In this document: positions 34,319 through 64,000 of the stretch, one piece after another
How the letters are laid out: every line of letters begins with the position of its first letter
Numbering within the stretch: position 1 is the stretch's first letter
From: Candidatus Omnitrophota bacterium
Lineage (GTDB): Bacteria > Omnitrophota > Gorgyraeia > Zapsychrales > Fredricksoniimonadaceae
Length of the DNA: 64,000 nt
Assembly (NCBI GenBank): GCA_903944345.1
Contig: CAJARJ010000019.1
Location: 7,480 to 71,479 of the forward strand
Direction: 5' to 3'
Notes under the pieces: model-generated
Seen by the model: the letters and a program-made list of their open reading frames with translations, nothing else
Told to the model about the DNA's origin: nothing
The model's database searches: none
Made by a program: the position numbers and the translations under genes

Positions 34319-34330
34319 AGAAAGAAAAAT

Positions 34331-36925: not shown

Positions 36926-36944
36926 CGGCGGCATTTAACCCCGG

Positions 36945-39773: not shown

Positions 39774-39793
39774 TCTGAGAGAGGCGGTTTAAA

Positions 39794-40168: not shown

Positions 40169-40219
40169 TAAGTGGCATGGATGTTGTCCTGAACAGCAGA
40201 AAAATTTACAAGGAGAAAC

Positions 40220-41065: not shown

Positions 41066-41066
41066 C

Positions 41067-41957: not shown

Positions 41958-41989
41958 TAAAGTCATCATTTTCTATTAGCGAATAAAAA

Positions 41990-42016
41990 TGTCCAGTCTG
42001 AGGCTGGACATTTTTA
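41990..42016. terminator. Strong intrinsic terminator (bidirectional appearance) after tadC
   Basis: AAAAA-TGTCCAG-tctgagg-CTGGACA-TTTTT; 7-bp stem flanked by an A-run and a T-run. Confidence 0.8.
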
Positions 42017-42443
42017 TTAAAGATTGTCCATTCTGGTGTTTGCAGAGCATTTATTTATCCCTAAAGAGTGCCCAATCAAATTAATAAATGCTTACTGGCT
42101 AAGAGGAGTCCTGATTGAAAAGTTAGGTAGATAAAGTGCGAATAGTTTCCTTCCATTTTGGAAATGAGCAAAGGATTGTAGCGTATAAATTCGTCTGGTA
42201 TTGATTCTGTTTATAGGGTTTAATTTACGCCATAACGCGCAGGATAAAGAGAATTTGCAGGGAATTAAAAAACAATTTAAGATCATTTATATTGAGGAAT
42301 GTAACCTGTTGTCAGTAAAAGTGATTTTATTGTAAATAGATTTGCCAGCGAATTGTCTTGCCTATACTATAATGTTATACTTCGTCCATCGATTGACTTG
42401 AGGTATCGAGTCGATATTTTGGGTTTATTGACGGAGTCCCGGT

Positions 42444-45400
42444 ATGGACAAGCAGCTGGATTCAAAGACCGTCGAGTCTTTTTCAACCGTTGCCGCAGCT
42501 GAAGCGCCTATCAGCGTTTATGCCGAGGGTGGCTTCCGGAGTCGTTTTAATTTCTGGATCCGCGCGGTTTCTGTTATTCTCATCTGCATTTTTCTTCCTG
42601 ATCAGATTGGCTGGGCTTTCAATTATAATCCGGCCGTGATTTATCCCCAGAATGCACTTAATTACCAGCCCGCACCGGTTTTAACTTCAGCCGAACGTTC
42701 TTCTGCGCAGATTGCTGGCAGTGTCGGTTTTCTTTTGAATCAGGTAAAAGGTCTTGAGCAAGCGCGCTTTGAGCTGAAGCTTAATCCTGCAAATGCTCTT
42801 CAGCTGGCGAAAGAGCTCAAGCAACCGGTTTTGGCAATCGATAGCCGTAGAAGTTTTAACGAATTGGCCATATCAGAAATTACGCAATGGCTGGCTGAGC
42901 CTCAGGTTCATATCCTTAATTGCGGCGTTTACGCGCTCAAGGATTTGTTGGATTTTGAGGGGATCAGCAAAACACCCGAAGAGCTGTCGGTCATAACCAT
43001 TCTGGCGGATCTTCTAAGCGATGTGCTTCGGACCGGGGACGAGCGTCTGAAAACATCATTGTTTGCCTTGAGCCAGGCTATGGATGCGTTTGGGCTGGAG
43101 TACCAGGCGGTCAAGCTTCGTCCGGAAAATCTCCGGTTGTTGGCCACACCTTTTATTGCTCATTTTAAAGATGAACATTTCGTAACAGTGCTGCGGATAG
43201 AGGGGGACACGGTTTATTTGAACGACATCGGAAACCCCGGTCAGATGTCGATCTCTGAGTTGGCGCAGCGGGCTTCCGGGTTTGCCCTGGCTCGGGAGAT
43301 GAAGTTTTTTGTGAAAGCTGGCTTTGAACGTGTTGCGCAAAACACACAAACATTCGTTTGGGGTGACAAATGGCGTAATAAGTCAGATGAACTGCCCGGG
43401 CTCGTGTCCAATTCTCAGATAGCCATGCAGGTAGGAATACAAGTTGTGGGGGCGCTGGCGGCCGCTTGGATGGGGCCAGGCGGATGGGCGGCGTATGCGA
43501 CGTTTTCCATGAGCATGGCAGCATCTTCTTTCGCGCAGGCGGTTGGACAGGTTTGTCAGATGCGCGGAGGCAGCGGTCAAAGCTGCATGTTGTTAAGTAC
43601 TGCGATTAGCGTTGGACTGACTATGGGGACTTCGGCGCTGCTTTCTGCCGGACAGGCGGCAGGAACCCAGGCTGCGGGTCAGGCTTTGGCTAAAGATGGA
43701 GTCACGAATGCTTCGGCTCAGGTTTCGCAGGAAACGGTCAACAAGGCGGCGTCTGAAGCGGCGGGAGCCATTTCTCGTAGCGGAGAGATTGCGACACAGG
43801 AGGCCATCACCTCGTCTGTGACCAAGGCGTTTGCCAATCAGGGGATTGCTGTCTCGGGCGAGTTGGGGGCCAAAATTAGTGCGGCTGCCGCGGCTAACGT
43901 TACCGCCAAGGTTGCCGAAGCTTCGGCTTCAACTATGGCATCAACATTTGCTGCCGGTTTTGCGCAAGGAGCTATTATTGGTGTCGCCAAAGGGGCGGTG
44001 GAGTACCAGGTTGTCAAGATGATCGACAAGGCTCTGGGGGACGACGATTATATTCTCAAGAGCACAGTGCAGGCCATTGCTTCATCGGTCGCAGGGGCGA
44101 TGGTGGGATCGATTGTTCAGTGGGGAATCAGTAATGCGGTCACCGCTTACAACGAGTCTTCCGCGGCAAATACCGATACAGAAACAGCCGCTGCGTCAAC
44201 AGACACTTCAGCAACATCGACACAGGCGGCGACTACAGCAACAGACTCGGCCATGATTCGCCTGACCAAGCTGGACGGCGGCTTTAATCCGTATGACTTG
44301 GGCAAGAATTCATTAGGAACGGTATTGTCGCGCACATTGATGGATCGTTCGCTTTTGGCCGGAGTTGTCGGGCATTTGGCGGCCATGGGCGTGCGCTATG
44401 CGGTTTCCGGTGGCGCGGTGACCCAGGAAGAAGAGGGAGATTTATCTGTTGTGTTGGGCCAGCTGGGTAATACCTTCGGCCAGATGGCTGGAAACTTTGC
44501 GATGGGCCAGAGTAAAATCGGTTATGACAACCGTACGCCGGAACAAACGGTCAAGGATGCCAAGGACTGGACAGCTTTGTTTAAACAGGCTATCCCTAAA
44601 GCCGTGGTTTCTGCCGGCCTGACTTATGCGCTCCTGGCCATGGAAGAAAGCGTTATCGGAGACGATGACGGGTCTCATTCCTATAAAGAAAAACAGATGG
44701 CGTTTCGCAACACCGCGTTTATGATCTCGGGCGTTATGACTGGCCTGGCTCTGGGGTTAGCGGCGGAGTATGCTCATCAAGATGCTGATTCTCCTGTGGG
44801 TGCGACAACCTCTTCTGTTGTAGAGGATGGCCGGTTAGAGGCTGGTTACAAGACTGGCTATTGGCAGCAGCAAAAAGAATTTCAGATGGATTTCTGGGGT
44901 CTTGGCGCCATGCAGACGCTCACCAACGAGATGGGCGGAACACCGTATTCGTTAAATGCGGGGCTGGCTGCGGGCCAGTTAACCAGCACCATGCAGGGGT
45001 TAACCGGTTTTACGCCTCAAACCGCCTGGCAGATAGACAAGATGTGGCTGGCAACCAAGAAGGCCAATTCGGAGCTTTCAGCAGACAACAGGGAATCAAA
45101 CAGCGTTCTTAAGTTGCGTCACCGTATTGCAATCTTCGATATTATTGATCCTGGCATGATCAATATTGATTATGTTAACTCACAATTCTCGGCCGGAGTT
45201 GTCAGCAATGTTATTGCTACCGGAGAGATTGCAGCCAGCGCGACTTTCGCTCGTGGAAGCATTGACGGGCAGCAGTATTTGACCGATTGGGGTTTCCAGT
45301 GGCGGCCGGCCATAACCAGGGATATTGTCACTCCGGATGGCAAGCCTACCGGGCGGGCATTGGTTTTTATGGGGGCTACAAATGATGTTAACCGTTTGCT

Positions 45401-51400: not shown

Positions 51401-54400
51401 TGGTACAGATCACGGTCTTTTTTATGTGACCACGGATAAATTTATTAAGGAATATGAAGGTTTTACTTTTTTTGAAGGACAATCGCTACCCGCTATCAGG
51501 CGTTGGCTTATGAAGGATAATGGGATTGTGGCGGATATCAGAACTCTTTTGGGCAAGCCAAGAGCAGGAATGGATTATCAGGATGCGTATGATTACAGTA
51601 CATTTTCAACCTGGAAAGGGTTGAAAGGTTTGGCTGCGGGGTATGGGGTTGCGCAGTATCTTGGATGGACCGCGGTTTCTGCAGGCATCGGGGGGGCGGT
51701 GGGAGGCTATGCTAACGACTGGGATCGAGCGGCTATATTTGAGGGGACTTTGAACGGAGGAGTGGATGGTGCGGCATTGGGAGGGGTTGTTGGGATCGGG
51801 GGTGGAGTGTTACAGGCTGCCGCAAAAGCAGGCTATGTTCAGAAGCTGCAATCGTTGAGTCCGGCGGTTAAGATGGGAGCCTCTTCGGTTGGCTGGGGGT
51901 CTTATGGTGTTGGTCAGGGGATGTTTAGTAATTATATGGCCGGCAAAGATATTACCGATGGCAACTGGAAAGAGTGGACCAGTCGGTTTGTGATTGGTGC
52001 CGCAACAGGTGCGGCCGGACGCGGGTTATCGGCAACCAGGTCGCCGGCATTGAATGCCGTGGCAGGAAATGTTTATACGAAGAGTCTGGTGACCACTGTT
52101 GCAGGAGGAGCAGCAGCCCGGAGTTTCGAGGAAGGCGGCAAGGGCAATTCGGCCGGAACCTTTTTGTTTGATGTTGGCTCGGGAGTTGTTGGAGCGTTCG
52201 CAATCTCCGGTGCGGGGGTATGGGGCAGATCTATTCTGGGCCAGACAGCAGGGAAAACGGTTTCTGCGCCAGCCTCCTCTGTTTGGTATGACTCTTGGGC
52301 CGCAAGTAGCAATCTCTTTAAGTCCTCTGTCGGCAAGACGACGGCAAAGTCTGTTTCATTAGCTGAGCGCGGAGCCGCGGCTGTTCGTCCCTATACCGCT
52401 CCAGTTGGAAACTTTTTTGATGCCAATCCTGCAGTAAGACAATTTGTAATGCCCTTTTCCGGAAAAAACTACAATACAGCGCTGGGTGAAATACGCGGGC
52501 TTGCCGGGGCAGGAAAGATGTCTTATCTTGAGTATTCCGCAAAAGTTTCGAAGCTCGCAGCCTCCGGAGTTCTTGGCGGATCGACTTGGGGAGGCGTGGC
52601 CGGGTATGCGTTGTCATATGGCAATCCCAATGAGCTCACATCTGAACAACGGATGGGTTATGCGGCTTATGGCGCTTTTGCGGGGGGCGCGTTGGCTCTT
52701 CTGGTTGCCGCTCGTCCGGCTATGCAGAACTGGTCACGAACAACCCCTGAGGGGCGCACTCTGGAGAAGGTGGATATTACAAATTTTACTCCGAATATGG
52801 CCGGACGCATGGCTTTAACGGGGGCAACCGATTTTGCCTTGATGATGCCGGCTTGGAATATTGTGACTGTTCCGGTACACGCTGCGGCAGAAAAACTTCT
52901 TGGAAAGAGCGAAAACTGGAAGGAAGCCTGGAAAAGTTCTGATATCAGATTTCGTACGGGGATGGACGGATCTTTAATAGATCCCACAGACCTGTTAGCT
53001 CGCAAGGCTCCTGGCGATATGTTAAGCGGTGCCCAGATGGGCGTTATGCTGGGACCGACCATGGGGCTTTTACAAAAGCCATTAAGCGCCGTGACCAGAA
53101 ATGAGAACGGTTTCTGGGGCAAGTTCTGGAAAGGTGAAAATCTGGCCGGAAAATTAACACCTTTTGCCGGACATTCGATGCCCAGAACCATTGCGACTTT
53201 GTCTTTTGTCGAGGTAGGAACCGAGCAGGCCATGCATGCCTTTGGACAGGGACGCATTGACCGGTGGGGTCAAGAGGGCATGGCAAAGGTCGAAAAATTA
53301 ATGGCGCTTGATCAGGTGTCGCGAGAGTTGGAATTGCAGCGTTTGGGAGATTCGGGATTAAAGACTTTTTTTGATACAGGAGATTTCTCCGCGGACGCGG
53401 TCAGGAATTATGGTATCAGTTACGCTGAAGGGCAGGTTGCCGCATTAGCCTCGAATGTTGCGTTTGCTTCGCTTTTCTTCAAGCCGACGGCCAGTCCTCG
53501 TCCGGTTGATTATCGTGCCCAGCGTATAGCCGCGGCGAAGGAATTGCGCGCTGCAAGAAAAGAGGTTGAGACGGCAGAAACGGCATGGAGGGCGGCCCCG
53601 ACTGATTCACAAAAGATAACGGCACATGCTGCTGCCATCGGCAAGGTAGAGAGGGCCAAACAGAAAATCTTCAGGGCTAACGCCAGCGAAGCCGCCGTTG
53701 AATTATCTAAATTTCGAACGGGCACCGGGGACGAGGGAAAAGCGGATGGGAAAACAAAAAATGTAGAGGCGATAGAGACCAAGTATAACAAAAGTATTAA
53801 TCTTGCAGAGGCCAGTGCCCGGCGGGCGAGCTGGGCGCAAACGGTTTCGACCTTGGCCGAGAACGGGGTTGTCAAATTTGATATTGATCTGCAAAGTCAG
53901 GCCGACAAGGCTCTGGCGGAAGTTAACAACCGGCAAGCGGAATATAGTCAGAATGCTTCGCCGGAGAATAAGGCGCAGGTTGACAATGCTTTAATAAATT
54001 TTTCGAAGCTTCAGAAGCAAATCAATAGAGCCGAATATGAGGCAAAGGAGATTGTTCTGAAAGCACGGATTAAAAAAGGTGAAGGAGCTGCCCCTTCAGC
54101 GTTGAAGAAGGATGCGCAGAAAGCTCAAGTGGAACTGGCTTTGTTGCCCCTAGAGAGGCTGCTCGCCCCGCGCATCGCCGTCGTTGATCAGCGAATTGCT
54201 ACTAAAAGAGCGCAGAGGGACGGGCTGGTTCGTGAAGGAATAGAGGCAGCCGAACGGGAAACGTCACCTGATAATAAGACGGCTGAAACAAGCGGAAGTA
54301 CCCGTGTTGAACCTCCCGAGAGCGTTGAGACGCCCGCTCAAGCAGCGCTCAGACAAGAGCGAATTCAGGCATTGGATCACGAGATAGCCGTGCAGGAGGG

Positions 54401-57400
54401 AGTTCGTGATCGTTTGGTAACAATGATGGAAAAATGGATCGCGCCTCTTGTTGAAAGTCGTAAACAGGCCGGCGAGACCAGCCCTACCGGTGGCATCAAC
54501 TCAAAGATTGTACGTGAGGCCGTTGAAGATCATCTGGCGAATGATCCACTGGAAAGGTCTCAACTAGAGACAAGCGCCGGGAGGCTGGAAGGTTCCAGCG
54601 GCAAGAAAGTTGAAGCAGGATCCAAAGAATATGGCGAAGCGGTTGAGGCCGCGCAGATTCTGGCGCGGCATAATTTGAGGACAGTCGAGAGACAAAGGGA
54701 CTCCCGCAGCGAAGAGTGGGTCGCAGATGAGCAGCTGCAGCGGGCGCAAAGGGAACTTGCCGAGGTAGAAAAGGAGCTTGGTTCCGCCACAGCTTCTTCT
54801 GCAGACACCAGGGTTGACACGAAAGATTCCGTGCCGCAAACCGCGGATACCGATGTTGTCAAGGCTTTGCAGCAAAGGAAGGCTGACCTGAACACCGAAA
54901 TTTCCCGATTGGAGGCATTTCTTCAAGAAAATTCCTCGTCAGCACAACCAAAAGAGATCGCTCAATTAAAGAGAGAACACAGGCAGGCTGTCGCTGCTGC
55001 CGAGGTAGCCGATAAGCACCGGGCTTTGCACGAGAGTGGTCAGACAGCGGAAAAGGTTTTGAAATCACAGGAGGCCGGCGGCAAAAGATGGTATGCCTCA
55101 GCAGAAGGGTTTGTCAGGAGGCACAAGGCTTTATTGACCCTGGAACAGCGCAAGCTGGCTTCCAAAGAATTGGAGTTGGCGCAAGCAAAGCAGAAGCTTG
55201 AAAATAGCTTGCAGGCACCCGAGCAAGCCGAAACTAAAGAAAAGATCGAGGCTCTGGAGAAAGATGTTTTTAATCTCCAAAAGTTGATGCTGGCTCACGA
55301 GTCCAGACTTGGTTGGGCCGAATTTTTTGCGGGAGCCAGGGCAAAGGGACAAATTAATCCATTAGAGTTTTTAAGCCTCAAGGGAAAAATAGAACGAATT
55401 GAGCATGATCCCAGTTATTCCAGAGAGCAGGCCGAAGATCTGGCGAGCAAAAAGCAGGAACTGGATAAGTTCGAGGCGACAGTAAAGGCTTTGGAGGCTG
55501 CGAAAGAGTCCTATGAAAAGGGGGAGAATGTCGATGCTGCTGCCAGTCTGCAGAAAGCGGCGGAAAATGATCCTGGATTAAGGGAGGTTTTTCCGGAATT
55601 ATTCAAGACAAGCAAGCCATCCGCTCCCGAACAGTCCGAAGCGGTTGAACAGCCAAAGCCGGCAGAGGCGGAAGCTTCCAGACAGCAAGCTACGCCAGCC
55701 CAACAGCAGCAGGCCCGTCCACAGGGAGATTTGGCAGCCAGGCAAAAAGAACAGGCGGCTCAGCTGGAAGCAATGCGTCAGCGGCAAGCTTCCAGTTCCG
55801 GAAAAACGTCGGTTGCCGCAGAAAAGCCGACGGCGGAGAAACCCGAAGCCCCGGCAAAAGTTGAGCTGTCCGAAAGTGTATCTGAATCTGTCAGAGCGGA
55901 AGGTCAGTCGAAGGAAACAATTGAGCTTCCTGAAAATATTCCATGGTCACAAGTCCAGCAGAATGTTCTTGAACGGATGGCACAAGTTGCTGGCCTTAAA
56001 GAAGGTTCGACATTGGAAGGAAGCAAAGACAGGCTGGACAAGGATATAGCCGGGCATACACAATCGGTGGGGACTCATTATGATCTTGCTCTCAGGCAGT
56101 ATGAAGTCGAGATAGCTGGCAATAAAGCACTGACTACGGGTGAAAGAAAAGCTCGCTTGGACCTTGTCAGAAGCGAGCTGGCGTTTCAGCGCGAGCATAT
56201 GCTTCGTCTGTTTCAGGCAGAACGAACGCCTTTGGAGGAGGCGCGATTTGAAGCATCCGAGTACAAGCTTGATGTGCAGGCCGCGAAATGGGAGCTGAAC
56301 AGGCCGCAGGATATTCATTTGAGCGGGGAGGGACACCTCTCTGCCTTCGATCAAATGCGGGATGAAGCCAGGACGGAGTTGGACAAGATTGATGTGCCCG
56401 ACTTGTCGGCACTGTTAGAGCACCGGGCCGCCCCCAGGGTTATTACCAGAAGAATGGTTGGAGCAAAAGGACTGGACTGGAAGAAATTCGTGGATGCTCT
56501 GCCCCAAGAAGGTGTTGAGCGCGATGCTCATCAAACTGATCAGGTCACGCTAACAAAAGATTTTGATAGAACCAAGACGGGCGGCTACCTTAAAGGCAAA
56601 GATGCCGCAGAGGTTGTTTTGAATAGAAGTCTTGATCCGAAAGAGGTTGAAGTTAAAGTTGAACAGACATTAAACCGCTTAAGAGAAGTGAAGGAACGGG
56701 TTGCGGCCATGAGAGTGGTCGGTGACATGGTTCGTGAAATGGCCGATGCCCGTGAGCTGAAAGGGACAGCGCTGTATCTTGTGAAAGCCGCCGAAGCCAC
56801 CGCAGTCCGGATTGATCTGAGAAAAAGATACGACAATCTGTTTCTTGAATTGAGGGATGATTACCGCATTCCTTTGAAGGATTTGACGCCAGAACAGCAG
56901 TTGGCGGTGGTAAAGTTCAATAAATATGTTTTTGGTGAATCCGGTGATTATCTGACACCAAAAGAATTCGTTGGGAGGGTGAGGGATGTACAAGAATCAG
57001 TTTTGTCCATTTTGCAGGACCAAGCTAAGGGGTTCGGGGAAGGTGCGGAAAATATAGTTGGCGAATTAAGCAGGATTGAAGCAAGAATTCAAGAGGTTGG
57101 AAACGAAATTGATTTGGCCTATTCCCTGGCGGTTTTGTCGCACGCAAGGACGGATAAGTCGGCGACTCCGGCGATAGAAGATCTTTTGCGTCAGGTGGAA
57201 CACTCCAAAGATGTGCCGATTGATCAGCAAACAATAGACAACATCAAGGAGCAGGCGGGGAGCATTCTTCCTTCTGCCAAAGAGGTAGCTGTTTCGACAG
57301 AGAAAGAGCCCTTTGCCAAACGAGCTCTCGACTATCTTGGCCAGGGTTCGCAACAGCAGAAAGACCAGGCGATTTTTGCCGTAACCAAACGGCTGACAAC

Positions 57401-60400
57401 GCTGGAGAAAACGGTCGAGACAGCCCAGGAACGTTCCCGTTTGCGCCGAGACCTGGAGCCTTTGCGTCGGGCGGTTACGGTCTTGCAGACCCAGGAATAT
57501 ATCCGGCACGATATATTTAGAAAGCTTGAGGCTGCGCGCACGAATAATTCAACTCGGGAACAGGAGATTGACCTGATTGAACGTGAAGCTAAGCGCATGA
57601 CGTATATTGACACGGATGTTTTTCGCTCCCTTGAAATGGGTCGTCCGGGGGAGCGCGCTTTTATGGATTATCTGATGTTGACGGAGTTGTTTAGAAATCC
57701 CGAGATCAAGACCCCGAAAGAGTTGGAAGCAGCATTGAAAAAGAAACTTAGTGGCGATGAGAATCTCAAACCGGATAGGATTGAGCAGGAATTGACACAA
57801 GGGGACAATCAAAATCGCCTGCAGATCACGTTAGATGTATTCAACCAGCATAAAAACACTGCTCCGATTAAAGCCCTCAATCAGATGCTAAAAGATTTGA
57901 ACAGAACGCATACTTCGGTGACAGATGGTTTCAGATCCGCCTTGAGCAGACGGGAGGGGTTGAGCCCGGAGGGTGAAGCGGGCAATATCGTAGATAAGAG
58001 GATTCGAGAAGCTCAGGAACAGATAGAGAGTATGTTGGAAATTATGTATGCCAAAGATTTTGAACTCGACAGAGGGGCCGAGATTACCGAGACGCTGCGA
58101 ACAGATAATAGTGGTGTAACCGAAATGAAACGCCGCTTTGTGATGGCGGAAGGTATTGCCCAGCAGGCTATTGGCTTGCCCGGAACGGTGGTGGTCAAGG
58201 GTACGGGAGGTGGTAAAACGCTTATTCAGCTCATGGGAGTGGAGTTAAGTCATATTGTCAGTGGACGCCAGGGGGCCACCACGACCATCATCACGCCTGA
58301 ACCGGCTAATATGATTGATTACATGAAAAGAGTCAATGAATTGTATGGTAAGGCAAAAGGACAGGGGGAGACAGATCACAAGACCAGATATTTTGCCGTT
58401 TCTGAAGGCAAGGTTTATCGTTTTGATGGAGAAAATGGTGTCAATAAGGATGGCTGGAAGCTTGTCACCAGAGGTGGCAAGCCTGTGGAGGCGCGGGAAT
58501 TCGAAATGACAGACAAGAAGGAGGGAGAATCTGCGGTTGTTATGATGACCTCCCGCGATGCTTATGATATGCGGATTCAGCCCGATTCCAAGGGGTATGA
58601 GTTCTTGAAATCTATGAAAGAGGGAAAGAACGAAGTTATTATGGATGATATTCAGGAAATGACCCGCGGTTCGGGGCTTGTTCTGGGTGGAGCTTATTCT
58701 GTAAAGGAACTGATTGCCAATGGCGGGCGGGCGGAAGCTGATGAAATTAGGGGGGCGGCCCAGATGGCTGCGCAGGTTTATAATTTAACAAAAAACTATT
58801 TATCCGAACGTTCCCTGAGTACTGCATTTGAGCGGGTGGATGCTCAACTGGTTGACCATATCAAGTCGCAGGTTTTTGGAAATGGGGTCGGTCGGCTTCC
58901 TTATTCCGAAACGTCCGAGAAACGCGTTTATGAGTTTATTGATGCGGCCTGGCGGCATTTCCGTCGGGTCAAAGGCAGCGATTATCATGAAGTTGTTGTG
59001 GATGAGAAAACAAAAAGCACGGCTTATGTTGTCAGGGTCAAGGATGTCCGCGGCGAAAGAGGAGTAGAGTTGACCTGGGAAGGCGAAAATCATCAGGGCC
59101 CCAGAACCCAGAGATTTGAGAAAGAAGAGGATTTCTACAGTTTTCTGAAGCAGAACGCCGAAGCCATGACTTTGGGGTATTCCAAGGGGTTTGTTCTGGC
59201 TGATCGGTCAGTGGCCACCAAGGATCATATTTTTCATGATCCGGCAGACGCGGCCATTTGTTCAGTTGCGGTGGGAGCTGACCTGCGGGTTACTGCTGAT
59301 TATCTGGTGCGGCCCAAGAAAGCCTTGTCGGCTGATATTTTCAAGGTTGCCTCTCTGGTCGGGGCGGAACGGATAACGTTTTATAGCGCGTCTCCGGATC
59401 TTGATGCTATCAAGGAGATGGGGCTGGATGTCACCTTTTCTCGGGATGGAGGAATGCGTCAACGGGGCGATCTGGTTCTGGTGGGCAGAGCTCCGGAACT
59501 AAAACAGGGGCAGTTGGAATTTCGTTATGGCCGCGGCCGCGAGATGCTGACGGAAGCGGTGCAACAGATTGTGCGTGATATTCGTGCGGACCCGTTTACT
59601 GTCCAAAGAAGAGCGGGCGAACGCGTAGTTGCCGTCAAGGTAGGGGTTCTGGTTCTGGATCGCGCGGATTATGCCCATGAGGCCAGGGAGGCGGCTCTTG
59701 CCGCCACACGGCATGATCCTTACCAGCATGTGGTTGAAGTGACTTTTACAGGAGACCGGAAACAAAGCATAATTGCCGCGCAGGCCAGGTTGCAGGAAGT
59801 GGCTGCCGGGTATTTTACGAAAGACATGTTTGAACGCGTTGGCCCCAAGGATCAAACCTGGGAGCAGTTCGTGGAAGACTGTCTTGGTAAGAATATAATT
59901 TTGCGTGATCCGGACAAGGTGGATCCGAACACGCGCGCGAACACGGAAACGCTGCAAGACTTTGTGACGGCTGGCAAGATTCGTTTTACTACCGATGCCG
60001 CCACGCATCCCAAAGTGTCCCGGGAGATCCAGACCATTATTGAGAAGTCTTCAAAGCAGAAGATCATTGTTGTCCTTCCCAAATTTGAAGCCGGTTCGAA
60101 TCTGCTGGAGTTTTTCTCTGACAAAGGAGAGCGGATCCTTTTTGGCGCTTCTATCCGTCATGTCGGGCGCATGGAAGACAGCACGTTTTACCTTCAGCTG
60201 GTCGGACGCGGAACTGATAATTACAAAGAAACAGAGACCAATCGCGCTTACTTGTTGGGTGGTAAAATGACCACTTATGTGGACACCGCACGTATGTCGG
60301 CCACGCAGCGGGAGGCGTTTAGGGCGGCAGAGAATAAGGAAGAGAAGCTCTGGGAGCTGGCGCATACCTATGAGCGTGAGCTGGGCGTGCAGGCCGCTCA

Positions 60401-63400
60401 CCGGGCCAGATATTCCCTGTTGGATCTAAAGCTCGATGGTTATGGCCTCGAAACCAAATTAAGCGATACCGAACGTAATCAGCAGGCTCATTACGACAAG
60501 ATCATTCTGGAAAAAGGAGAAATGTATCGCGGCTTTTCCAGTTTCTATCTTCCGGAAAGAAATACGCAGTCTGTTCGCTGGTCTGTGCTTGACCGGATGG
60601 ATCTGGCAGAAGAAGGAGTTTCTTACAGAGCCTGGCAGGACTCGTTTCGCCCCTTCCGGGAAACACAGTCGGGCACACAGCTTGTGCGGGAACTGGTTTC
60701 CCAGCAGGCCGTGTCTTCCGAGGATCTGGACCGGTTGATGTTCACCCGCGATCAGAGCGGGCGTATTACAGACTCTCCTGTTTTCGAGATCGGGCGTAAC
60801 GGCGGCTTGACCGGTAATACGACGATGGTTGGAACCGTGGCCATGCGTATTTTACAGGATGAGCATCATGGCGGTCAGCCAGCCACCCGCAACGATCTGG
60901 AGGGCATACTCAACCGGGCGCGCCAGGAAGTGACCAGCTACATTTCTGCCGGAGCCAAGCTGGAGCAGGGAACAGATGGCGAGCTCATGTGGGTCAAGCG
61001 GGATGACGAGGGTCTTTATATGGACGTTATTCCGGCCGGAACAAAAAGATATAAGGTGAACGCTGCCGATACGCAGGAGTTTCAGGTGGTGGAGCGTTAT
61101 AATTACAATCCTGCCGGTCAGGGAGCGTATTGGGCAAAAAGTTTCCTGGCTTTGCCCTCGGGCGCTCCAGCCCAGGGACTGACGGTGCACGGAACAATAA
61201 TTCCTGACGGAGCGCAGGTGGACCAGAGTGGACAGTATGTCTTGACACAGAATTTTTCTCATCCTGACCAGCCGAATGTTCTGGCTTTGCTGGTGAACGG
61301 GCAGATGATCGTCAAGGAAAAAGGAGAGCTCTCCAAAGAGGATGTGGAGGCGGCCGGAGGAGATTGGGAGCAGATCAAAGAAAAGTTGACCCAGGCCAAA
61401 GAGCGGCTGGCCGACATTAAAGAGGATACGATCATATTTGATTCTGCTGTGACGGCAGAAAAAGCGCAGGCACTGCTTTTGGATATGTCCGCAACACAAC
61501 CGCTTCGGCGAGTGATTCAAGCGGCTGTTGAAGGTTATTATCAGCTAAATGCGCATTTGCCCCGCGAACGGCTGGCGGCGATTGTTGGGGAGAATAACGT
61601 TGGTGTTTTGGAAACCGCTTTGCAGCAAGCGGGTCTTGTTGATGCGGCGGGAACTGTGCAGGAGAAGAAAAAAGTAGTACTTGAAAAAGACGAACCTGCG
61701 CAGTCATGGACGGCCCTGATGCCCTCCCGGATGCCTTCCAGAGTAAACACGGCAGAAGATGAGAAAGACAGGGCACAGAAAGCTGAAAAGAGAGCCCGCG
61801 ATCTGGCTGTAGCTTTAAACTTGCCCAGGAGCTACCACGAGCATGCTTTGGCCATTCTGGAAAGCCTGAGAGATTCTTTGGAAATAGATATTCCTTTGCG
61901 GCAGTTTGTTTCGGGCACAGAGCGCCTGCAAGCTCCGGATGGAATTGTGCGTTTGTCGGCTGAAACTATGGACAGACGCGTTATTGACGTCTCTCTTCAG
62001 AGTCAGACGGCTCGCCGTGAAGGACAGCTGCGTCAGCAGGCTGGCGAGCGGGGAGACTTGGATGCTGTTCGGGCGCACACCAGAAATATCAACCGGTCGC
62101 TTGCCGGAATTCTGAAGTATCGCGCCGGACTTTCTTTGGCCCCTACGGTGACGAAAGAAATCTTCAAGGATATCAAGGATGCGGCTGTTAATAAAGATGC
62201 ATTGATTCAGGCATTGAGAGCTGCCGGGTATATTGATGACAAAGGCTTTTTAAAAGATGACAGTTTCTTTGCTGTGAAAACTGCGGCAGATCTGAATATT
62301 GGCCTTGATCTGAAAGATGAAGACAAGGACAAGGTCTTTGAGGCGCTGGTCAAGGCGGAAACAATCCGTATTAATATTGATCGTGGTTTGTCACGTTCAG
62401 AATATACGCTGGAAGATTTTGACGGAAAACAGGAGAAGGCACAGGCTTTACTGGATCAAATTCGCAGGGATTCCAGTATTAGCGCTCCGACTCCGCAAGA
62501 CGGCCATCCCGCTGAAGATCCGGTAGCGGCGCTTAATCAGTTGTTGTCTGACCAGACAGGATCTGCGTTCTTGCCCCAAAAGGATTCTGTCACTCCTCTG
62601 GAAGTCCGCCGGGCCATCAAGGCTAAATATGAAAAACTGGCTCCCGAGGATCGCGATCTGGGCCAGGATAAAGATGAGCTGACCATTCGTCTTTTGCGTA
62701 CGCTGGGGAGCAAAGTTCGTGATGTAAAAGGTGATCTTGTCCCCTTGTCCCAAATTCGTCAGCTGGAAATGGATTTTTCCCTGCTGGATGACGGCCAGGC
62801 GGCGCAGGCCACAAATTCTTCGATCAAGCTGGGCCTTGATGCGTTTCTCACCGCGCTGGCGGACAATAACAAGTCCGGTTTCCGTTTTGTTCGTCACGAA
62901 GGTATGCACGTCTGGGATCGCAATCTCTCCCGGCATAAACTGGAGGCCCGGCGAATTGCGGGCAAAGTGGATGTCATCCCCCGTTCGGCACGCATACGGT
63001 TTGAGGATTATAAAGTTTTTCAGACAGACACTCTGCGTGCCAGATTGAATGAAAACAAGGTTGGAATTTTGAGTGATCCTTTTGCTTTTATCAGGGACAT
63101 GGAAACGCTGGGCTATGTCAGGAAAGAAAAGGATCATTACATTAAGACCGACAAGTTCTACCAGGAAACCAACGGAATGGTTTTTAAGAAACTTCCCGGG
63201 TATGACACGCAGGAACAGCGCAAGTTTGTTTTTGAGCTTCTTAATAATGGAGAAGAAATCGGTATATATGACAAGGATTTTGCTCTTGGCGAAGTCTTTA
63301 CCCAGAGAAAGGAAGGCAGGGATTATCTGCAGGAATTGTCCCGGGCCATGGAGCAGGGAGATATGCAGGAGGTTCGGCGGATGTCTGCCATTGTGGAAGA

Positions 63401-64000
63401 CAATTTCCAGCGCTCGCGTGAAATGGCTTATCGTTTTTATGGCGGGTATCAGAAATTCTTGTCACAGTTGAAGGGGGAAACAAGGCAGGCCGACTGGAAA
63501 GTGGAAGCGGAAACAGGTTCAGGAGAAAATATTCTGCTTGTTCCGGTTACGGAGCACGCATCTTTGCGGATTCCGGTTGGAAACAAGACACTCGAAGATA
63601 TAAATTCGCCGGCGAATCGGGAGAATCTCCAAACACTTGTACAAAACGAGCTTGTGGAACTGGAGCATTTAACGGCGGAAATGGATGCCTATTTGCAGTT
63701 GGCCAAGAAGCATGCCACAGATCGCTTCCTGTACACTGTTTTAAACCGGGCCAGGTTGTCAAAGAATCTTGACCAAACCGTTCCGGTGGCCGGGGAAAAA
63801 GACGCTTCATCGACCTTTAAACTGCGGATCGTTGCCGGTATTTTAAGTTCGGATTTTATGAAAAAGGAAGCCGCTACCAAGGATGGAAAAGCGGTAACGA
63901 TTTATTCCAACCCGAAAACCGGCTGGCGTATGCATGTGGATCAGAAGACCGGATTGATTCACAGGTTTGACAGAACGCCAGGGGTTTCCGAGGATGCCGT
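42444..64000 (+). CDS. Giant multidomain protein, N-terminal >=7,185 aa (ORF still open at the window end)
   Basis: ATG at 42444 preceded by GGAG (42433-42436) and an in-frame TGA at 42429. The codon frame with starts at positions congruent to 0 mod 3 is open to 64000: hand-checked at 47400, 49980, 54960, 60000, 63960, with protein-like sequence throughout. The ORF track shows no plus-strand ORF in this frame because there is no in-window stop. Recognisable parts: TM helix FWIRAVSVILICIFL; C39-like Cys/His motifs (NCGVYAL ... HFVTVLRIEGDTVYLNDIGNPG); Gly/Ala-rich hydrophobic modules; ~1,400-aa coiled coil; SecA-like ATPase (KGTGGGKT, VIMDDIQEMTRGSGLVLGG, LVGRGTD..LLGG). Confidence 0.85.
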   Translation, partial: MDKQLDSKTVESFSTVAAAEAPISVYAEGGFRSRFNFWIRAVSVILICIFLPDQIGWAFNYNPAVIYPQNALNYQPAPVLTSAERSSAQIAGSVGFLLNQVKGLEQARFELKLNPANALQLAKELKQPVLAIDSRRSFNELAISEITQWLAEPQVHILNCGVYALKDLLDFEGISKTPEELSVITILADLLSDVLRTGDERLKTSLFALSQAMDAFGLEYQAVKLRPENLRLLATPFIAHFKDEHFVTVLRIEGDTVYLNDIGNPGQMSISELAQRASGFALAREMKFFVKAGFERVAQNTQTFVWGDKWRNKSDELPGLVSNSQIAMQVGIQVVGALAAAWMGPGGWAAYATFSMSMAASSFAQAVGQVCQMRGGSGQSCMLLSTAISVGLTMGTSALLSAGQAAGTQAAGQALAKDGVTNASAQVSQETVNKAASEAAGAISRSGEIATQEAITSSVTKAFANQGIAVSGELGAKISAAAAANVTAKVAEASASTMASTFAAGFAQGAIIGVAKGAVEYQVVKMIDKALGDDDYILKSTVQAIASSVAGAMVGSIVQWGISNAVTAYNESSAANTDTETAAASTDTSATSTQAATTATDSAMIRLTKLDGGFNPYDLGKNSLGTVLSRTLMDRSLLAGVVGHLAAMGVRYAVSGGAVTQEEEGDLSVVLGQLGNTFGQMAGNFAMGQSKIGYDNRTPEQTVKDAKDWTALFKQAIPKAVVSAGLTYALLAMEESVIGDDDGSHSYKEKQMAFRNTAFMISGVMTGLALGLAAEYAHQDADSPVGATTSSVVEDGRLEAGYKTGYWQQQKEFQMDFWGLGAMQTLTNEMGGTPYSLNAGLAAGQLTSTMQGLTGFTPQTAWQIDKMWLATKKANSELSADNRESNSVLKLRHRIAIFDIIDPGMINIDYVNSQFSAGVVSNVIATGEIAASATFARGSIDGQQYLTDWGFQWRPAITRDIVTPDGKPTGRALVFMGATNDVNRLLDFRGVENLGLSRETDPKTGKVRESLTGTYTKEYAHATGLDKAMAGIDDLTRELNSAGVNGISAERLQAALAKNGLKGAVVSSGPDGSQKVLVDVDGKTVSLDASLLQQAGLIAPAGVDKNGKLQWKFNAGSAPGSVFSNRNAKGTVFSFSGAEVVADTSSPVYFLHKIAGLPGAPVDWARSTQPENVWKNYTVDLGARNAAMTNNPGTTFSAQQINQPGGASQSVFSLELDYAGNSGNPLQMASGYRGIKKNRAGEADRKTLSFDLTAQANPDGSAVFGERRNLSIAGLVIEPGNKSVMDLAFTSMNNVGGNNLRYNVTGVNTVTGEVFDLARFKKAFEAGIRKQEQIGLLDLFLPQMSGKTAAAWLSVMATSQALGQLTPGITAPVLMNMGIRQKGSALPEASLVSSIDGKINPLQLNTYTADGQVKDVLRVTARNTPLLQLAAGGGANNFLGNVHNVSRTFLNNHLPMGSADRFGYYYAAGTPSVGKGGGKVTQYDSQLLPMFSGDEVGLEGWLREGTVARISDGKKKGSYKGKILSDFFLVNPLDPAAGELVRLVGEIGITRAGHGQTLTAEEGKTIKNFALQQAPEGIVAVIDNNGLSPFLERAVLAYPHKGAFSPEQGGQVGDITLTTNQTGHALSKYPKLGFVFHDKAGWQLLPEQSSSSTTKDRYRRGDGAIMERLFKRTIRIFGRQTITQKDGSVTGSTIDPAISKRKVSDTGWVQMGERMIAPPPAPKPVARAAGGSGDGSQKVGAEIEYTEQSLDTAAREQVAKAKKDQGIDVPPTEQEVAAAKKSILAELNSSESVEGGGTKGEWMRFRLQQSAARKSAAAFEQGGEDNEALLAEQEAASEAGSGVFSGLDKPVTEKSLERKVKAQQTNDNTVHLKPDQGAMGSYLTGAVGAPKAEELYPEVKGSGEQTAKTGSQWKKAKTEQVSLAIEANGVVTPGAITFEATTYLGRKGAAGQAAEQINVCVQTNCKAVETPYQAAYDAKTGQWLLTGVDGKGVYGISTPLGGVKPQEGNSTQVAGNGLDGRVTLRRFVGLDANGQAIYMMTLDSQTPGPNSNIQIAETGKQAVPDGMQVNNNQVSLQAPAVGVGNGFITFKEDRKTGQVTFQDNNMYYAVDMAKNQNGIELWHNDSRTPGGQVLTLDPQYNVDGSGQYNAVLKQGSQLTIADGSYGKVIGSSSVDGEGMDFRQGIFAGGNLHFVNNLKSGIMSLSADPNQFYIDKTGDGMVLNRNGQSINGALWQTSKSGASSWLSFDRAEFGSKTDPSLFGTPVRLGVPDQEGKAIAVNSPELIKVQSSESVAELSAKATYDAAHAEVQKLQAQLSQPGSILFEGDVPVAREAVAAQLANALTKEGSARKAYAVAAEQRSAKEANASGKGAETEFINQTMGEKAQDPAAQETARLYKDEGSDQVWATGELSFVLGELNTTTPAAWGVFRGQMTDQEIADKTGLQITPEFSAERKAFEDELAKNGEVSQEDFARIAPHWSEIFKDETQRRKLASADSHLDQFVNNGNVTPLTYMNSDSLYTYVSGKSSVEGIKDATAVYDKSGQLTGYTDRDGRMVTFTNAIPLIKLVDPTGEKVYSQTVLYGGSFKGGENRQLLEGAVAGQMDYLTGSGLSKAPLEQQFIQLKDGKRFITQIKWSELGMDEAGPDRPLGLAVNVNNLSLGLQNQLQGNLSGISPVSLSDQAKGMLAYRDKEGHERIVAFPAMERGSNTDIMSTNIMAFNPGDVLSINHFAPKFVNLSAKDAPYDQAQQVISIPESQLKAVNIGQDFSFQAAPPNLSGAKSGTVNQGANEASATSDSVESRRTQMQGQDLASVYAIDSKGTVTAGPDTTQAIEFNTGEKLIGRVGFQIGTINQGGVPVLSKEIQFAGQAPGSVVGWKGTDAELKSITGERIAQFKTPDGKTNVTPYIGGWVYKGEGHVDFFADRGRAQTEISQGKSVLRVVESVPGYLMVVPVQYSFDLSKPKIAGKEFVIDAKTGQKLTQSVGQVGTDHGLFYVTTDKFIKEYEGFTFFEGQSLPAIRRWLMKDNGIVADIRTLLGKPRAGMDYQDAYDYSTFSTWKGLKGLAAGYGVAQYLGWTAVSAGIGGAVGGYANDWDRAAIFEGTLNGGVDGAALGGVVGIGGGVLQAAAKAGYVQKLQSLSPAVKMGASSVGWGSYGVGQGMFSNYMAGKDITDGNWKEWTSRFVIGAATGAAGRGLSATRSPALNAVAGNVYTKSLVTTVAGGAAARSFEEGGKGNSAGTFLFDVGSGVVGAFAISGAGVWGRSILGQTAGKTVSAPASSVWYDSWAASSNLFKSSVGKTTAKSVSLAERGAAAVRPYTAPVGNFFDANPAVRQFVMPFSGKNYNTALGEIRGLAGAGKMSYLEYSAKVSKLAASGVLGGSTWGGVAGYALSYGNPNELTSEQRMGYAAYGAFAGGALALLVAARPAMQNWSRTTPEGRTLEKVDITNFTPNMAGRMALTGATDFALMMPAWNIVTVPVHAAAEKLLGKSENWKEAWKSSDIRFRTGMDGSLIDPTDLLARKAPGDMLSGAQMGVMLGPTMGLLQKPLSAVTRNENGFWGKFWKGENLAGKLTPFAGHSMPRTIATLSFVEVGTEQAMHAFGQGRIDRWGQEGMAKVEKLMALDQVSRELELQRLGDSGLKTFFDTGDFSADAVRNYGISYAEGQVAALASNVAFASLFFKPTASPRPVDYRAQRIAAAKELRAARKEVETAETAWRAAPTDSQKITAHAAAIGKVERAKQKIFRANASEAAVELSKFRTGTGDEGKADGKTKNVEAIETKYNKSINLAEASARRASWAQTVSTLAENGVVKFDIDLQSQADKALAEVNNRQAEYSQNASPENKAQVDNALINFSKLQKQINRAEYEAKEIVLKARIKKGEGAAPSALKKDAQKAQVELALLPLERLLAPRIAVVDQRIATKRAQRDGLVREGIEAAERETSPDNKTAETSGSTRVEPPESVETPAQAALRQERIQALDHEIAVQEGVRDRLVTMMEKWIAPLVESRKQAGETSPTGGINSKIVREAVEDHLANDPLERSQLETSAGRLEGSSGKKVEAGSKEYGEAVEAAQILARHNLRTVERQRDSRSEEWVADEQLQRAQRELAEVEKELGSATASSADTRVDTKDSVPQTADTDVVKALQQRKADLNTEISRLEAFLQENSSSAQPKEIAQLKREHRQAVAAAEVADKHRALHESGQTAEKVLKSQEAGGKRWYASAEGFVRRHKALLTLEQRKLASKELELAQAKQKLENSLQAPEQAETKEKIEALEKDVFNLQKLMLAHESRLGWAEFFAGARAKGQINPLEFLSLKGKIERIEHDPSYSREQAEDLASKKQELDKFEATVKALEAAKESYEKGENVDAAASLQKAAENDPGLREVFPELFKTSKPSAPEQSEAVEQPKPAEAEASRQQATPAQQQQARPQGDLAARQKEQAAQLEAMRQRQASSSGKTSVAAEKPTAEKPEAPAKVELSESVSESVRAEGQSKETIELPENIPWSQVQQNVLERMAQVAGLKEGSTLEGSKDRLDKDIAGHTQSVGTHYDLALRQYEVEIAGNKALTTGERKARLDLVRSELAFQREHMLRLFQAERTPLEEARFEASEYKLDVQAAKWELNRPQDIHLSGEGHLSAFDQMRDEARTELDKIDVPDLSALLEHRAAPRVITRRMVGAKGLDWKKFVDALPQEGVERDAHQTDQVTLTKDFDRTKTGGYLKGKDAAEVVLNRSLDPKEVEVKVEQTLNRLREVKERVAAMRVVGDMVREMADARELKGTALYLVKAAEATAVRIDLRKRYDNLFLELRDDYRIPLKDLTPEQQLAVVKFNKYVFGESGDYLTPKEFVGRVRDVQESVLSILQDQAKGFGEGAENIVGELSRIEARIQEVGNEIDLAYSLAVLSHARTDKSATPAIEDLLRQVEHSKDVPIDQQTIDNIKEQAGSILPSAKEVAVSTEKEPFAKRALDYLGQGSQQQKDQAIFAVTKRLTTLEKTVETAQERSRLRRDLEPLRRAVTVLQTQEYIRHDIFRKLEAARTNNSTREQEIDLIEREAKRMTYIDTDVFRSLEMGRPGERAFMDYLMLTELFRNPEIKTPKELEAALKKKLSGDENLKPDRIEQELTQGDNQNRLQITLDVFNQHKNTAPIKALNQMLKDLNRTHTSVTDGFRSALSRREGLSPEGEAGNIVDKRIREAQEQIESMLEIMYAKDFELDRGAEITETLRTDNSGVTEMKRRFVMAEGIAQQAIGLPGTVVVKGTGGGKTLIQLMGVELSHIVSGRQGATTTIITPEPANMIDYMKRVNELYGKAKGQGETDHKTRYFAVSEGKVYRFDGENGVNKDGWKLVTRGGKPVEAREFEMTDKKEGESAVVMMTSRDAYDMRIQPDSKGYEFLKSMKEGKNEVIMDDIQEMTRGSGLVLGGAYSVKELIANGGRAEADEIRGAAQMAAQVYNLTKNYLSERSLSTAFERVDAQLVDHIKSQVFGNGVGRLPYSETSEKRVYEFIDAAWRHFRRVKGSDYHEVVVDEKTKSTAYVVRVKDVRGERGVELTWEGENHQGPRTQRFEKEEDFYSFLKQNAEAMTLGYSKGFVLADRSVATKDHIFHDPADAAICSVAVGADLRVTADYLVRPKKALSADIFKVASLVGAERITFYSASPDLDAIKEMGLDVTFSRDGGMRQRGDLVLVGRAPELKQGQLEFRYGRGREMLTEAVQQIVRDIRADPFTVQRRAGERVVAVKVGVLVLDRADYAHEAREAALAATRHDPYQHVVEVTFTGDRKQSIIAAQARLQEVAAGYFTKDMFERVGPKDQTWEQFVEDCLGKNIILRDPDKVDPNTRANTETLQDFVTAGKIRFTTDAATHPKVSREIQTIIEKSSKQKIIVVLPKFEAGSNLLEFFSDKGERILFGASIRHVGRMEDSTFYLQLVGRGTDNYKETETNRAYLLGGKMTTYVDTARMSATQREAFRAAENKEEKLWELAHTYERELGVQAAHRARYSLLDLKLDGYGLETKLSDTERNQQAHYDKIILEKGEMYRGFSSFYLPERNTQSVRWSVLDRMDLAEEGVSYRAWQDSFRPFRETQSGTQLVRELVSQQAVSSEDLDRLMFTRDQSGRITDSPVFEIGRNGGLTGNTTMVGTVAMRILQDEHHGGQPATRNDLEGILNRARQEVTSYISAGAKLEQGTDGELMWVKRDDEGLYMDVIPAGTKRYKVNAADTQEFQVVERYNYNPAGQGAYWAKSFLALPSGAPAQGLTVHGTIIPDGAQVDQSGQYVLTQNFSHPDQPNVLALLVNGQMIVKEKGELSKEDVEAAGGDWEQIKEKLTQAKERLADIKEDTIIFDSAVTAEKAQALLLDMSATQPLRRVIQAAVEGYYQLNAHLPRERLAAIVGENNVGVLETALQQAGLVDAAGTVQEKKKVVLEKDEPAQSWTALMPSRMPSRVNTAEDEKDRAQKAEKRARDLAVALNLPRSYHEHALAILESLRDSLEIDIPLRQFVSGTERLQAPDGIVRLSAETMDRRVIDVSLQSQTARREGQLRQQAGERGDLDAVRAHTRNINRSLAGILKYRAGLSLAPTVTKEIFKDIKDAAVNKDALIQALRAAGYIDDKGFLKDDSFFAVKTAADLNIGLDLKDEDKDKVFEALVKAETIRINIDRGLSRSEYTLEDFDGKQEKAQALLDQIRRDSSISAPTPQDGHPAEDPVAALNQLLSDQTGSAFLPQKDSVTPLEVRRAIKAKYEKLAPEDRDLGQDKDELTIRLLRTLGSKVRDVKGDLVPLSQIRQLEMDFSLLDDGQAAQATNSSIKLGLDAFLTALADNNKSGFRFVRHEGMHVWDRNLSRHKLEARRIAGKVDVIPRSARIRFEDYKVFQTDTLRARLNENKVGILSDPFAFIRDMETLGYVRKEKDHYIKTDKFYQETNGMVFKKLPGYDTQEQRKFVFELLNNGEEIGIYDKDFALGEVFTQRKEGRDYLQELSRAMEQGDMQEVRRMSAIVEDNFQRSREMAYRFYGGYQKFLSQLKGETRQADWKVEAETGSGENILLVPVTEHASLRIPVGNKTLEDINSPANRENLQTLVQNELVELEHLTAEMDAYLQLAKKHATDRFLYTVLNRARLSKNLDQTVPVAGEKDASSTFKLRIVAGILSSDFMKKEAATKDGKAVTIYSNPKTGWRMHVDQKTGLIHRFDRTPGVSEDA

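Follow-up and report, generated by a model that had tools for sequence, protein, structure and literature searches.

A 7,963-residue, C39-headed protein encoded by a 23.9-kb gene beside a Tad-like cluster in an Omnitrophota genome

We analysed a 64,000-nt stretch of DNA from a Candidatus Omnitrophota bacterium (contig CAJARJ010000019.1 of assembly GCA_903944345.1, positions 7,480 to 71,479; hereafter the window), in which a single open reading frame (ORF) starts at position 42444 of the plus strand and stays open to the last base. This giant ORF is a genuine single gene. Taken jointly, the evidence is best explained by a real 23.9-kb Omnitrophota giant gene, located near the replication origin right after a Tad-like pilus/secretion cluster, whose product acts together with the Tad-like machine, a reading to which we assign a probability of about 80%. 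Omnitrophota are bacteria of the Planctomycetes-Verrucomicrobia-Chlamydiae (PVC) group, mostly ultra-small and host-dependent; giant ORFs fill a surprising share of their small genomes and are thought to underlie the host-dependent or predatory lifestyle. Alignments show that the protein and its relatives have a collinear scaffold in common, composed of an N-terminal module, a first conserved island, a divergent body and a second, membrane-like island, and that its C-terminal part, with nucleoside triphosphatase (NTPase)-type and HExxH motifs, is common to very few other proteins.

Translation of 42444–63998 yields an unbroken run of 7,185 sense codons, as the original prediction had held, and the five peptides that it had sampled along the frame are all present in this translation. 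The closest in-frame stop 5′ of the ATG is the TGA at 42429–42431, and the runner-up among open stretches in the whole window has 944 codons. From base composition, ∼367 stops would be expected over the length of the ORF, and the log10 probability of finding none is −164. Codon usage is of the coding type: relative synonymous codon usage in the giant ORF correlates with that of 12 neighbouring genes at r = 0.85 (0.72–0.82 for each third), and the two off-frames give r = 0.06 and 0.20 against the same genes. The ORFs of at least 60 aa that overlap it in other frames or on the opposite strand (n = 78, the longest 229 aa) are consistent with shadow ORFs; they had been read as such from the start, but the count of about 40 given then depends on the length cut-off. 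The higher GC content noted for the region is also real, at 0.49–0.53 within the giant ORF versus 0.35–0.48 upstream. This excess lies largely at the first and second codon positions, and the higher GC is therefore largely due to the Ala/Gly-rich composition of the protein. Horizontal transfer as its source is disfavoured by these codon positions and by the neighbour-like codon usage.

The sequence of the gene is already in public databases. Exact-sequence look-up of a neighbouring 281-aa protein, labelled ‘tight adherence protein B’ in one source, traced the same locus to at least 14 public contigs. Three public contigs from different samples (311,881, 90,408 and 50,481 bp) have a 7,963-aa gene call at the position of the giant ORF, and four contigs from different samples are 99.995–100% identical to window positions 30220–51065. 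With these independent assemblies, a chimera or a frameshift behind the long frame, which had been raised as a concern, is very unlikely. By the public calls the full gene measures 23.9 kb, and the frame therefore runs past the window, as had been anticipated, for ∼778 codons or ∼2.3 kb, to an extrapolated end at ∼66,335. The window (42444–64000, plus strand) holds the first 7,185 of the 7,963 codons, and the domain, motif and composition analyses described below cover this in-window part of the protein.

The protein begins with a membrane anchor (aa 34–60; 42543–42623, plus strand), the sole segment with a mean Kyte-Doolittle (KD) value above 1.6. Its N-terminal side carries Arg31/33/39, from which we infer an N-in orientation by the positive-inside rule; an invariant PDQ-x(6)-YNP motif lies C-terminal to it, and the flanking residues F31, S33, F35, F50, P52, Q54, Y61, N62 and P63 are invariant among nine aligned sequences. 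The anchor is followed by a Peptidase C39 domain (aa ∼140–290; 42861–43313, plus strand), which was identified by Pfam (PF03412, 35.8 bits versus a cut-off of 22), by AlphaFold2 (AF2) and by Foldseek, and which is the sole domain that Pfam and NCBIfam recognize in the 7,185 aa. In an AF2 model built from nine sequences, confident prediction is confined to aa ∼80–300, where the predicted local distance difference test (pLDDT) score is 70–89. In Foldseek comparisons the C39 region matches 6mpz and 5xe9 with TM-scores of 0.72–0.73 and root-mean-square deviations of 2.7–2.9 Å, and PCAT1 and the C39-like domain of HlyB are further matches. The candidate catalytic triad consists of Cys160 (in LNCGVYAL; 42921–42923), His245 (in EHFVTV; 43176–43178) and Asp261 (43224–43226), all on the plus strand. 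Cys160 and His245 are invariant in the alignment, and Asp261 is positioned 16 residues past His245, the spacing known from PCAT1 and ComA. With these residues intact, the domain looks catalytically competent, as opposed to a degenerate C39-like domain. An FVWGDKW motif (aa 304–310; 43353–43373, plus strand), whose W306 and G307 do not vary in alignment A1, ends the N-terminal module.

A search with the first 1,200 aa returned eight homologues, all truncated by contig ends and all with PF03412, mostly from Omnitrophica metagenome-assembled genomes (MAGs). When the N-terminal alignment was scanned against one genome per species, the module was found in at least 93 species-representative genomes, the majority labelled Candidatus Omnitrophota or Omnitrophica; the other labels are many ‘uncultured Planctomycetales’ and single records of Elusimicrobia, Caldithrix and ‘bacterium’. 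The top identities are only 39–48%, and the species of the window is therefore not among these 93 genomes. We kept 80 loci for measurement of ORF length, following each ORF to the end of the examined DNA, and in 74 of them the C39-headed frame is open throughout, over as many as 4,249 aa. With its N-terminal C39 domain, almost no other domains and relatives that are mostly labelled Omnitrophota, the protein is of the Omnitrophota giant-gene type, as had been proposed. In six loci (L008, L019, L070, L071, L078 and L079) the C39-headed ORF ends after 551–2,265 aa, and in L071 sequence homologous to the second island resumes ∼8.7 kb past the stop. These six loci suggest that in some lineages the gene is frameshifted, split or a pseudogene.

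The location of the gene directly after a Tad locus, which the original prediction had emphasized, is conserved. Upstream sequence of at least 3.5 kb is available for 58 related loci, of which 55 have a co-oriented pair of T2SSF (TadB/C-like) genes ahead of the giant gene, and the order p418–p942–p124–T2SSF–T2SSF–giant is usually kept in relatives. Relatives of the TadB/C pair are likewise found mostly in MAGs labelled Omnitrophota or Omnitrophica. In the window, the Tad-like cluster (23813–41957, plus strand) sits just downstream of dnaA-dnaN-gyrB-gyrA and was recognized from Pfam matches, a pilin N-terminal motif and conserved gene order. Its genes encode, in order, a Rotamase_2 peptidyl-prolyl isomerase, RcpC, a secretin with TonB_C, a ParA/MinD-T2SSE fusion ATPase, DUF192, a 601-aa protein, ∼10 Flp-like pilins (32112–35390), a 418-aa and a 938-aa protein, a 124-aa protein and two T2SSF proteins (40220–41957).

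Some components of the cluster deserve description in their own right. The 724-aa ATPase (27397–29571, plus strand) has an N-terminal ParA/MinD-like part (AAA_31/CbiA, TadZ-like) fused to T2SSE (TadA/CpaF-like); in classical Tad systems the TadZ-like and TadA/CpaF-like ATPases are separate proteins. The RcpA-like secretin (25705–27378, plus strand) combines Secretin and T2SS-T3SS_pil_N domains with a C-terminal TonB_C domain (63.7 bits), which is an unusual combination; TonB C-terminal domain content has been found to adjoin some giants (Nielsen & Lui 2026, bioRxiv 10.64898/2026.06.07.730766). The ∼10 small paralogous pilin genes, also on the plus strand, have K/R-rich N-termini with G-Q-[ST]-T-x-E-Y and a hydrophobic helix, of the Flp or class III type, and constitute a very large repertoire for a single locus. 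The N-termini of the 418-aa and 938-aa proteins are similarly pseudopilin-like.

A 486-bp spacer (41958–42443, plus strand) lies between the second T2SSF gene and the giant gene. It contains a hairpin at 41982–42018 with a 17-bp perfect stem and flanking A- and U-tracts, whose folding energy of −21.4 kcal/mol (z = −4.8) is matched by none of 200 shuffles. This hairpin looks like a bidirectional intrinsic terminator; a consensus terminator scan does not list it. Promoter-like hexamers at 42342–42420 show no enrichment over shuffles.

Between the N-terminal module and the C-terminal part, the protein alternates between conserved and divergent stretches. No internal repeats were found along the chain, as self-BLASTP returned the identity match alone and phmmer searches of 150-aa tiles gave one marginal pair, and Cys is nearly absent (8 of 7,185 residues). 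The first uncharged, Gly/Ala-rich and moderately hydrophobic cluster (aa 317–780; 43392–44783, plus strand) may supply extra membrane helices; its uncharged runs (aa 317–373, 375–416, 493–515 and 540–570) have KD values of 1.2–1.6, and AF2 gives helices there with low confidence. Conserved island 1 (aa ∼690–955; 44511–45308, plus strand) is matched at a collinear position in ∼8 relatives by tblastn, with 23–35% identity and E-values down to 1e-12. The divergent body of ∼2,300 aa (aa 781–3060; 44784–51623, plus strand) is rich in Gly, Ser, Thr, Asn and Val, has no Pfam or NCBIfam match and no repeats, and is matched in parts by one relative only (L018).

The second hydrophobic cluster (aa 3061–3490; 51624–52913, plus strand) is Trp-rich, contains 16% Gly and has glycine-zipper-like runs. 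Conserved island 2 (aa ∼3380–3684; 52581–53495, plus strand) is collinear in 8–9 relatives, with identities up to 38% and E = 1e-19. Its motifs, DFAxMMPAW (52830–52856), SGxxMGxTLGPxLAxxQMPLSA, GHSMPxT (53169–53183) and AFYSLxxKP, are rich in Pro, Gly and His within hydrophobic surroundings, and profile searches of Pfam and the PDB returned no match for the island. Next is a charged spacer of ∼1,470 aa (aa 3701–5170; 53544–57953, plus strand), which by composition is helix-favouring (33% DEKR) and for which no homologues were found; the region C-terminal to it is of mixed composition. Weak Pfam matches to LGT, RHS_repeat and DUF6360 fell below threshold and were treated as compositional noise, the LGT match, located in the second cluster, probably reflecting membrane-like composition alone. 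Searches of PDB sequences with the two halves of the protein (phmmer and profiles) gave nothing significant.

The C-terminal part contains a putative superfamily 2 (SF2)-helicase-like NTPase module (aa ∼5174–6000; 57963–60443, plus strand), whose motifs fall in conserved columns of alignments A3 and A4. These are motif I, GTGGGKT (aa 5253–5259; 58200–58220), motif II, MDDIQE (aa 5400–5405; 58641–58658), motif III, SASPD (aa 5648–5652; 59385–59399), and QLVGRGTD (aa about 5918–5925; 60201–60218), all on the plus strand. When 1.84 billion representative proteins were searched exhaustively by HMMER with aa 5151–6150, no more than four relatives came up. On the contig of one relative, the ORF just 5′ of P0011 encodes an N-lobe that scores above the Pfam cut-offs, with 28.8 bits for DEAD (cut-off 26) and 25.9 for ResIII (cut-off 22.5). 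This ORF aligns to aa 5249–5546 of the giant (E = 3e-11), and the two P-loops coincide in the alignment. The SF2-like assignment is probable, not established.

A further conserved module (aa 6769–7175; 62748–63968, plus strand) contains HEGMH (aa 6818–6822; 62895–62909), the sole HExxH motif in the giant. It aligns with aa 3550–3949 of P0009 at 31.5% identity (E = 1e-44), and the corresponding motif in P0009 is HEVMH. The module has no family match, and a metallopeptidase role for it is only a lead. P0009 (5,689 aa; locus L085) is the best relative of the NTPase region and is collinear with aa 5174–7175 of the giant, spanning the entire 17-kb contig JADFYI010000025.1 of Omnitrophota MAG GCA_015233145.1. 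Another contig of this MAG, L005, is among the closest N-terminal matches, so the orthologue is probably divided over at least two contigs. P0009 extends ∼1,740 aa past the collinear part. A GNAT acetyltransferase domain (56 bits) lies in this extension, as does a weak second P-loop of the DEAD-like type, and the frame is open at the contig end; the orthologue is therefore longer than the giant and has extra modules. A relative of the NTPase module in L086 (ERZ25039472 contig_57212, 1053–6102) stands in a different context, beside phage-type integrase and AAA_15/AAA_21 (OLD-like) genes. Gene calling divides it into two ORFs that overlap, and this suggests either that the error-prone contig carries a frameshift or that the module also exists in a shorter form of its own. 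A word-indexed protein search with the last 1,000 aa in the window and with an NTPase tile gave no match, a weak negative since the identical public protein was not returned either. The collinear islands 1 and 2 and the C-terminal supermodule are new details beyond the published descriptions of such proteins.

We propose that the giant is anchored in the inner membrane with more than one crossing, the further ones probably at the two hydrophobic clusters. The Gly/Ser/Thr/Asn-rich body between these clusters would then lie exposed on the non-cytoplasmic side, and the ∼4,400-aa portion comprising the charged helical spacer, the NTPase and the HExxH module would be kept in the cytoplasm, because ATP is available there. 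The C39 domain may process either the giant itself or a partner protein, and the NTPase could supply the energy to export or remodel the exposed body, a role proposed earlier for SecA-like domains in larger giants (West-Roberts et al. 2023, bioRxiv 10.1101/2023.11.21.568195). The giant and the Tad-like machine would jointly attach to, or attack, a host or prey cell.

Several results weigh against this account. One clear transmembrane segment by the Kyte-Doolittle scale, together with two uncharged Gly/Ala-rich clusters at KD 1.2–1.6, leaves the multi-span topology a prediction, and the predictions of topology published for giants of this kind have themselves been described as unreliable (West-Roberts et al. 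2023). The strong hairpin and the 486-bp spacer make co-transcription of the Tad and giant genes doubtful despite the conserved synteny, and the two may be transcribed separately. The NTPase region gives no SecA_DEAD, DEAD or other Pfam domain even at E ≤10; the best PDB match of its profile is the XPB helicase, which at E ∼0.1 over motifs I and Ia is not significant; and its AF2 model has a mean pLDDT of 43 and meaningless Foldseek matches, so that we make no claim as to its fold. The in-window protein contains no double-glycine leader-like site, compared with 0.6 expected by chance, and cutting of the giant by C39 at such sites is therefore unsupported; the small proteins that neighbour it carry Flp-type, not GG-type, leaders. 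Finally, 7,963 aa is short of the sizes by which ‘large’ (>10,000 aa) and ‘giant’ (≥30,000 aa) proteins have been defined (West-Roberts et al. 2023). The suggestion that the protein is among the largest known was therefore overstated, since it is also far under the record of 147,155 aa.

Processing by C39 also underlies a different explanation, in which this domain, perhaps with the HExxH module, cuts the chain into several separately working proteins. We consider such a polyprotein unlikely. In its favour are the intact, invariant C39 residues, a modular layout in which divergent linkers set conserved islands apart, and one relative (L086) in which gene calling splits the NTPase region into two ORFs; the possibility was also raised for giants of this kind by West-Roberts et al. 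(2023). However, the in-window chain lacks double-glycine leader-like sites, and the split in L086 resembles a frameshift on an error-prone contig.

Alternatively, the giant could be secreted in its entirety, either as a fibre or adhesin at the cell surface or as cargo of the Tad-like system, leaving through the secretin to contact prey, much as the original prediction had suggested. The conserved adjacency to the Tad-like cluster and the Gly/Ser/Thr/Asn-rich composition of aa 781–3060 agree with this idea, and adhesion and a ‘coat’ have been proposed in the literature for larger relatives. Export of the whole chain is nevertheless improbable, as the C-terminal NTPase-type motifs would require cytoplasmic ATP. 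In addition, the N-terminus is an anchor with conserved flanks and not an obviously cleaved signal peptide, and adhesin-type repeats or domains were not found in the 7,185 aa. No Tad system is known to export a protein this large. A repetitive giant adhesin of the Ig-like, cadherin or RTX kind is ruled out by the lack of tandem repeats in self-BLASTP and phmmer tile searches. Likewise, a megasynthase for nonribosomal peptides or polyketides was rejected, as condensation, adenylation, ketosynthase, acyltransferase and carrier domains are all without a Pfam or NCBIfam match.

The two glycine-zipper-like clusters on either side of a long central region, the internal cysteine protease and a weak RHS/YD repeat match at aa 2539–2559 bring to mind the large toxins of the MARTX, Tc or Rhs kind that form pores or translocate; in such a toxin, the Gly-rich clusters would insert into the target membrane and the protease would free effectors. 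We regard this as very improbable: the RHS/YD match is single and below threshold; RTX, Rhs core, Tc and known effector domains were not found in Pfam, NCBIfam and PDB searches; the protease is a C39 domain that is N-terminal and next to the anchor, not a cysteine protease domain of the MARTX type; and the neighbourhood lacks genes for type I or type VI secretion. Lastly, an artefact of assembly (a chimera, a collapse or genes fused by sequencing errors) deserves almost no credence. Metagenome assemblies can mis-join, and the early stops in 6 of 80 related loci, with homology resuming past the stop in L071, show that breaks occur, real or erroneous, but the 7,963-aa product is identical across three contigs from different samples and assemblers, the four near-identical contigs cover 30220–51065, no stop occurs where 367 are expected, coding-type codon usage is uniform over the thirds, and multi-thousand-codon frames are open in 74 of 80 relatives; errors, moreover, tend to break frames and not to join them.

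The giant makes a useful example of its class, as it is comparatively small, non-repetitive and identically assembled across several samples. It lays out a minimal collinear scaffold of anchor, active-looking C39 domain, variable body, membrane-like module, helical spacer, NTPase and HExxH module. For a class that resists annotation, this scaffold offers concrete, testable pieces (protease, NTPase and topology), and it leaves knowledge of the class itself unchanged. A more speculative idea is that C39-headed proteins of ∼8,000 aa form a distinct compact lineage, each a non-adhesin, self-contained membrane machine in which the membrane-embedded island 2, the rare NTPase and the HExxH module work with the Tad-like apparatus. 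We hold this to be improbable; if it were true, these proteins would represent a new ATP-driven device for translocation or processing, and the larger Omnitrophota giants would be elaborations of the compact form.

Elsewhere in the window, a probable replication origin region extends over ∼10000–16200, where GC content falls to 0.35–0.36 and the GC skew changes sign near 16 kb. On the plus strand dnaA (14660–16009) comes first and dnaN, gyrB and gyrA after it, whereas yidC, parA and parB are on the minus strand. An 880-bp gap separates yidC from dnaA, and a second gap of ∼940 bp (11222–12164) has no ORF of at least 100 aa. A 6S RNA gene (415–568, minus strand; Rfam RF00013, 58 bits versus a gathering score of 46.4) lies beside pheT/pheS.

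The C39 domain of the giant has the fold of the C39 domains of peptidase-containing ABC transporters (PCAT1, ComA and LahT; PDB 4ry2, 5xe9 and 6mpz), and it keeps their Cys and His, with the Asp 16 residues past the His. Unlike theirs, it has no ABC transporter attached (Pfam finds no ABC domains), it follows an N-in anchor and so may face the periplasm instead of the cytoplasm, the Gln six residues ahead of the Cys varies among relatives, and no double-glycine leader substrate has been identified. The C-terminal NTPase-like module has the motif order of SF2 helicase, ResIII and SecA-type motors (I TGxGKT, Ia (I/V)xxP, II DDxx, III SA[ST] and QLxGRGT), and one relative exceeds the Pfam cut-offs for DEAD and ResIII. 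The giant itself differs from these motors in scoring nothing in Pfam, in its long insertions between motifs, and in having no recognized nucleic-acid- or preprotein-binding domain.

The closest parallels are with the giant ORFs of Omnitrophota themselves. ORFs of >20 kb have been reported in most Omnitrophota classes (Seymour et al. 2023, PMC10066038), and the present one has at least 21,555 nt in the window and 23.9 kb in total. In V. archaeovorus, the subject of work by Kizina et al. (2022) as cited by West-Roberts et al. and Seymour et al., the Tad locus is at 12–30 kb of the genome (Seymour et al. 2023), and the Tad-like cluster described here is similarly origin-proximal. Omnitrophota giants have an N-terminal C39 (or S8) domain near a signal sequence and are preceded by a secretion system of >10 subunits that includes gspD/E/F, rcpC, a Rotamase_2 peptidyl-prolyl isomerase and class III signal-peptide genes (West-Roberts et al. 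2023). In the window, C39 is found by Pfam and by fold beside the transmembrane segment at aa 34–60, and each published component of the system is present at 23813–41957. The published loci have numerous transmembrane regions and, in ‘most’, a divergent SecA_DEAD helicase domain, and then PilZ genes, solute-binding proteins and glycoside hydrolases (Seymour et al. 2023; West-Roberts et al. 2023). The giant has a putative helicase-type P-loop module in its C-terminal part, recognized here at the level of motifs and not as Pfam SecA_DEAD, and it has one unambiguous transmembrane helix.

In other respects the protein departs from its larger counterparts. It is 4–18 times shorter than the class-defining proteins (≥30,000 aa; record 147,155). 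Archaeovorin-type giants contain HEAT repeats, glycosyltransferases, methyltransferases, glycosyl hydrolases and NUDIX domains (West-Roberts et al. 2023), none of which was found in the 7,185 aa by Pfam or NCBIfam at E ≤0.1; features of dockerin-type giants are also absent, there being no Pfam matches to dockerin or TSP3 domains in this part of the protein and no internal repeats. A catalogue of proteins of ≥10,000 aa contains an architecture cluster defined by PF03412, with 24 proteins, and reports Tad/T2SS (type II secretion system) flanks for 13 of 14 giants (Nielsen & Lui 2026). The present protein is below the cut of that catalogue and can be likened to the cluster by architecture, not by sequence comparison: C39 is its only Pfam family, and it is very long, membrane-targeted, sequence-unique and flanked by Tad/T2SS genes. 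In the comparison with Omnitrophota giant-gene families that had been proposed, architecture and upstream gene set match the published loci, at a smaller size. With its C39 domain beside an anchor, hardly any other domains, the same preceding gene set and a length above 20 kb, the 7,963-aa protein is best filed as a new, small, domain-poor member of the already described Omnitrophota giant-ORF proteins.

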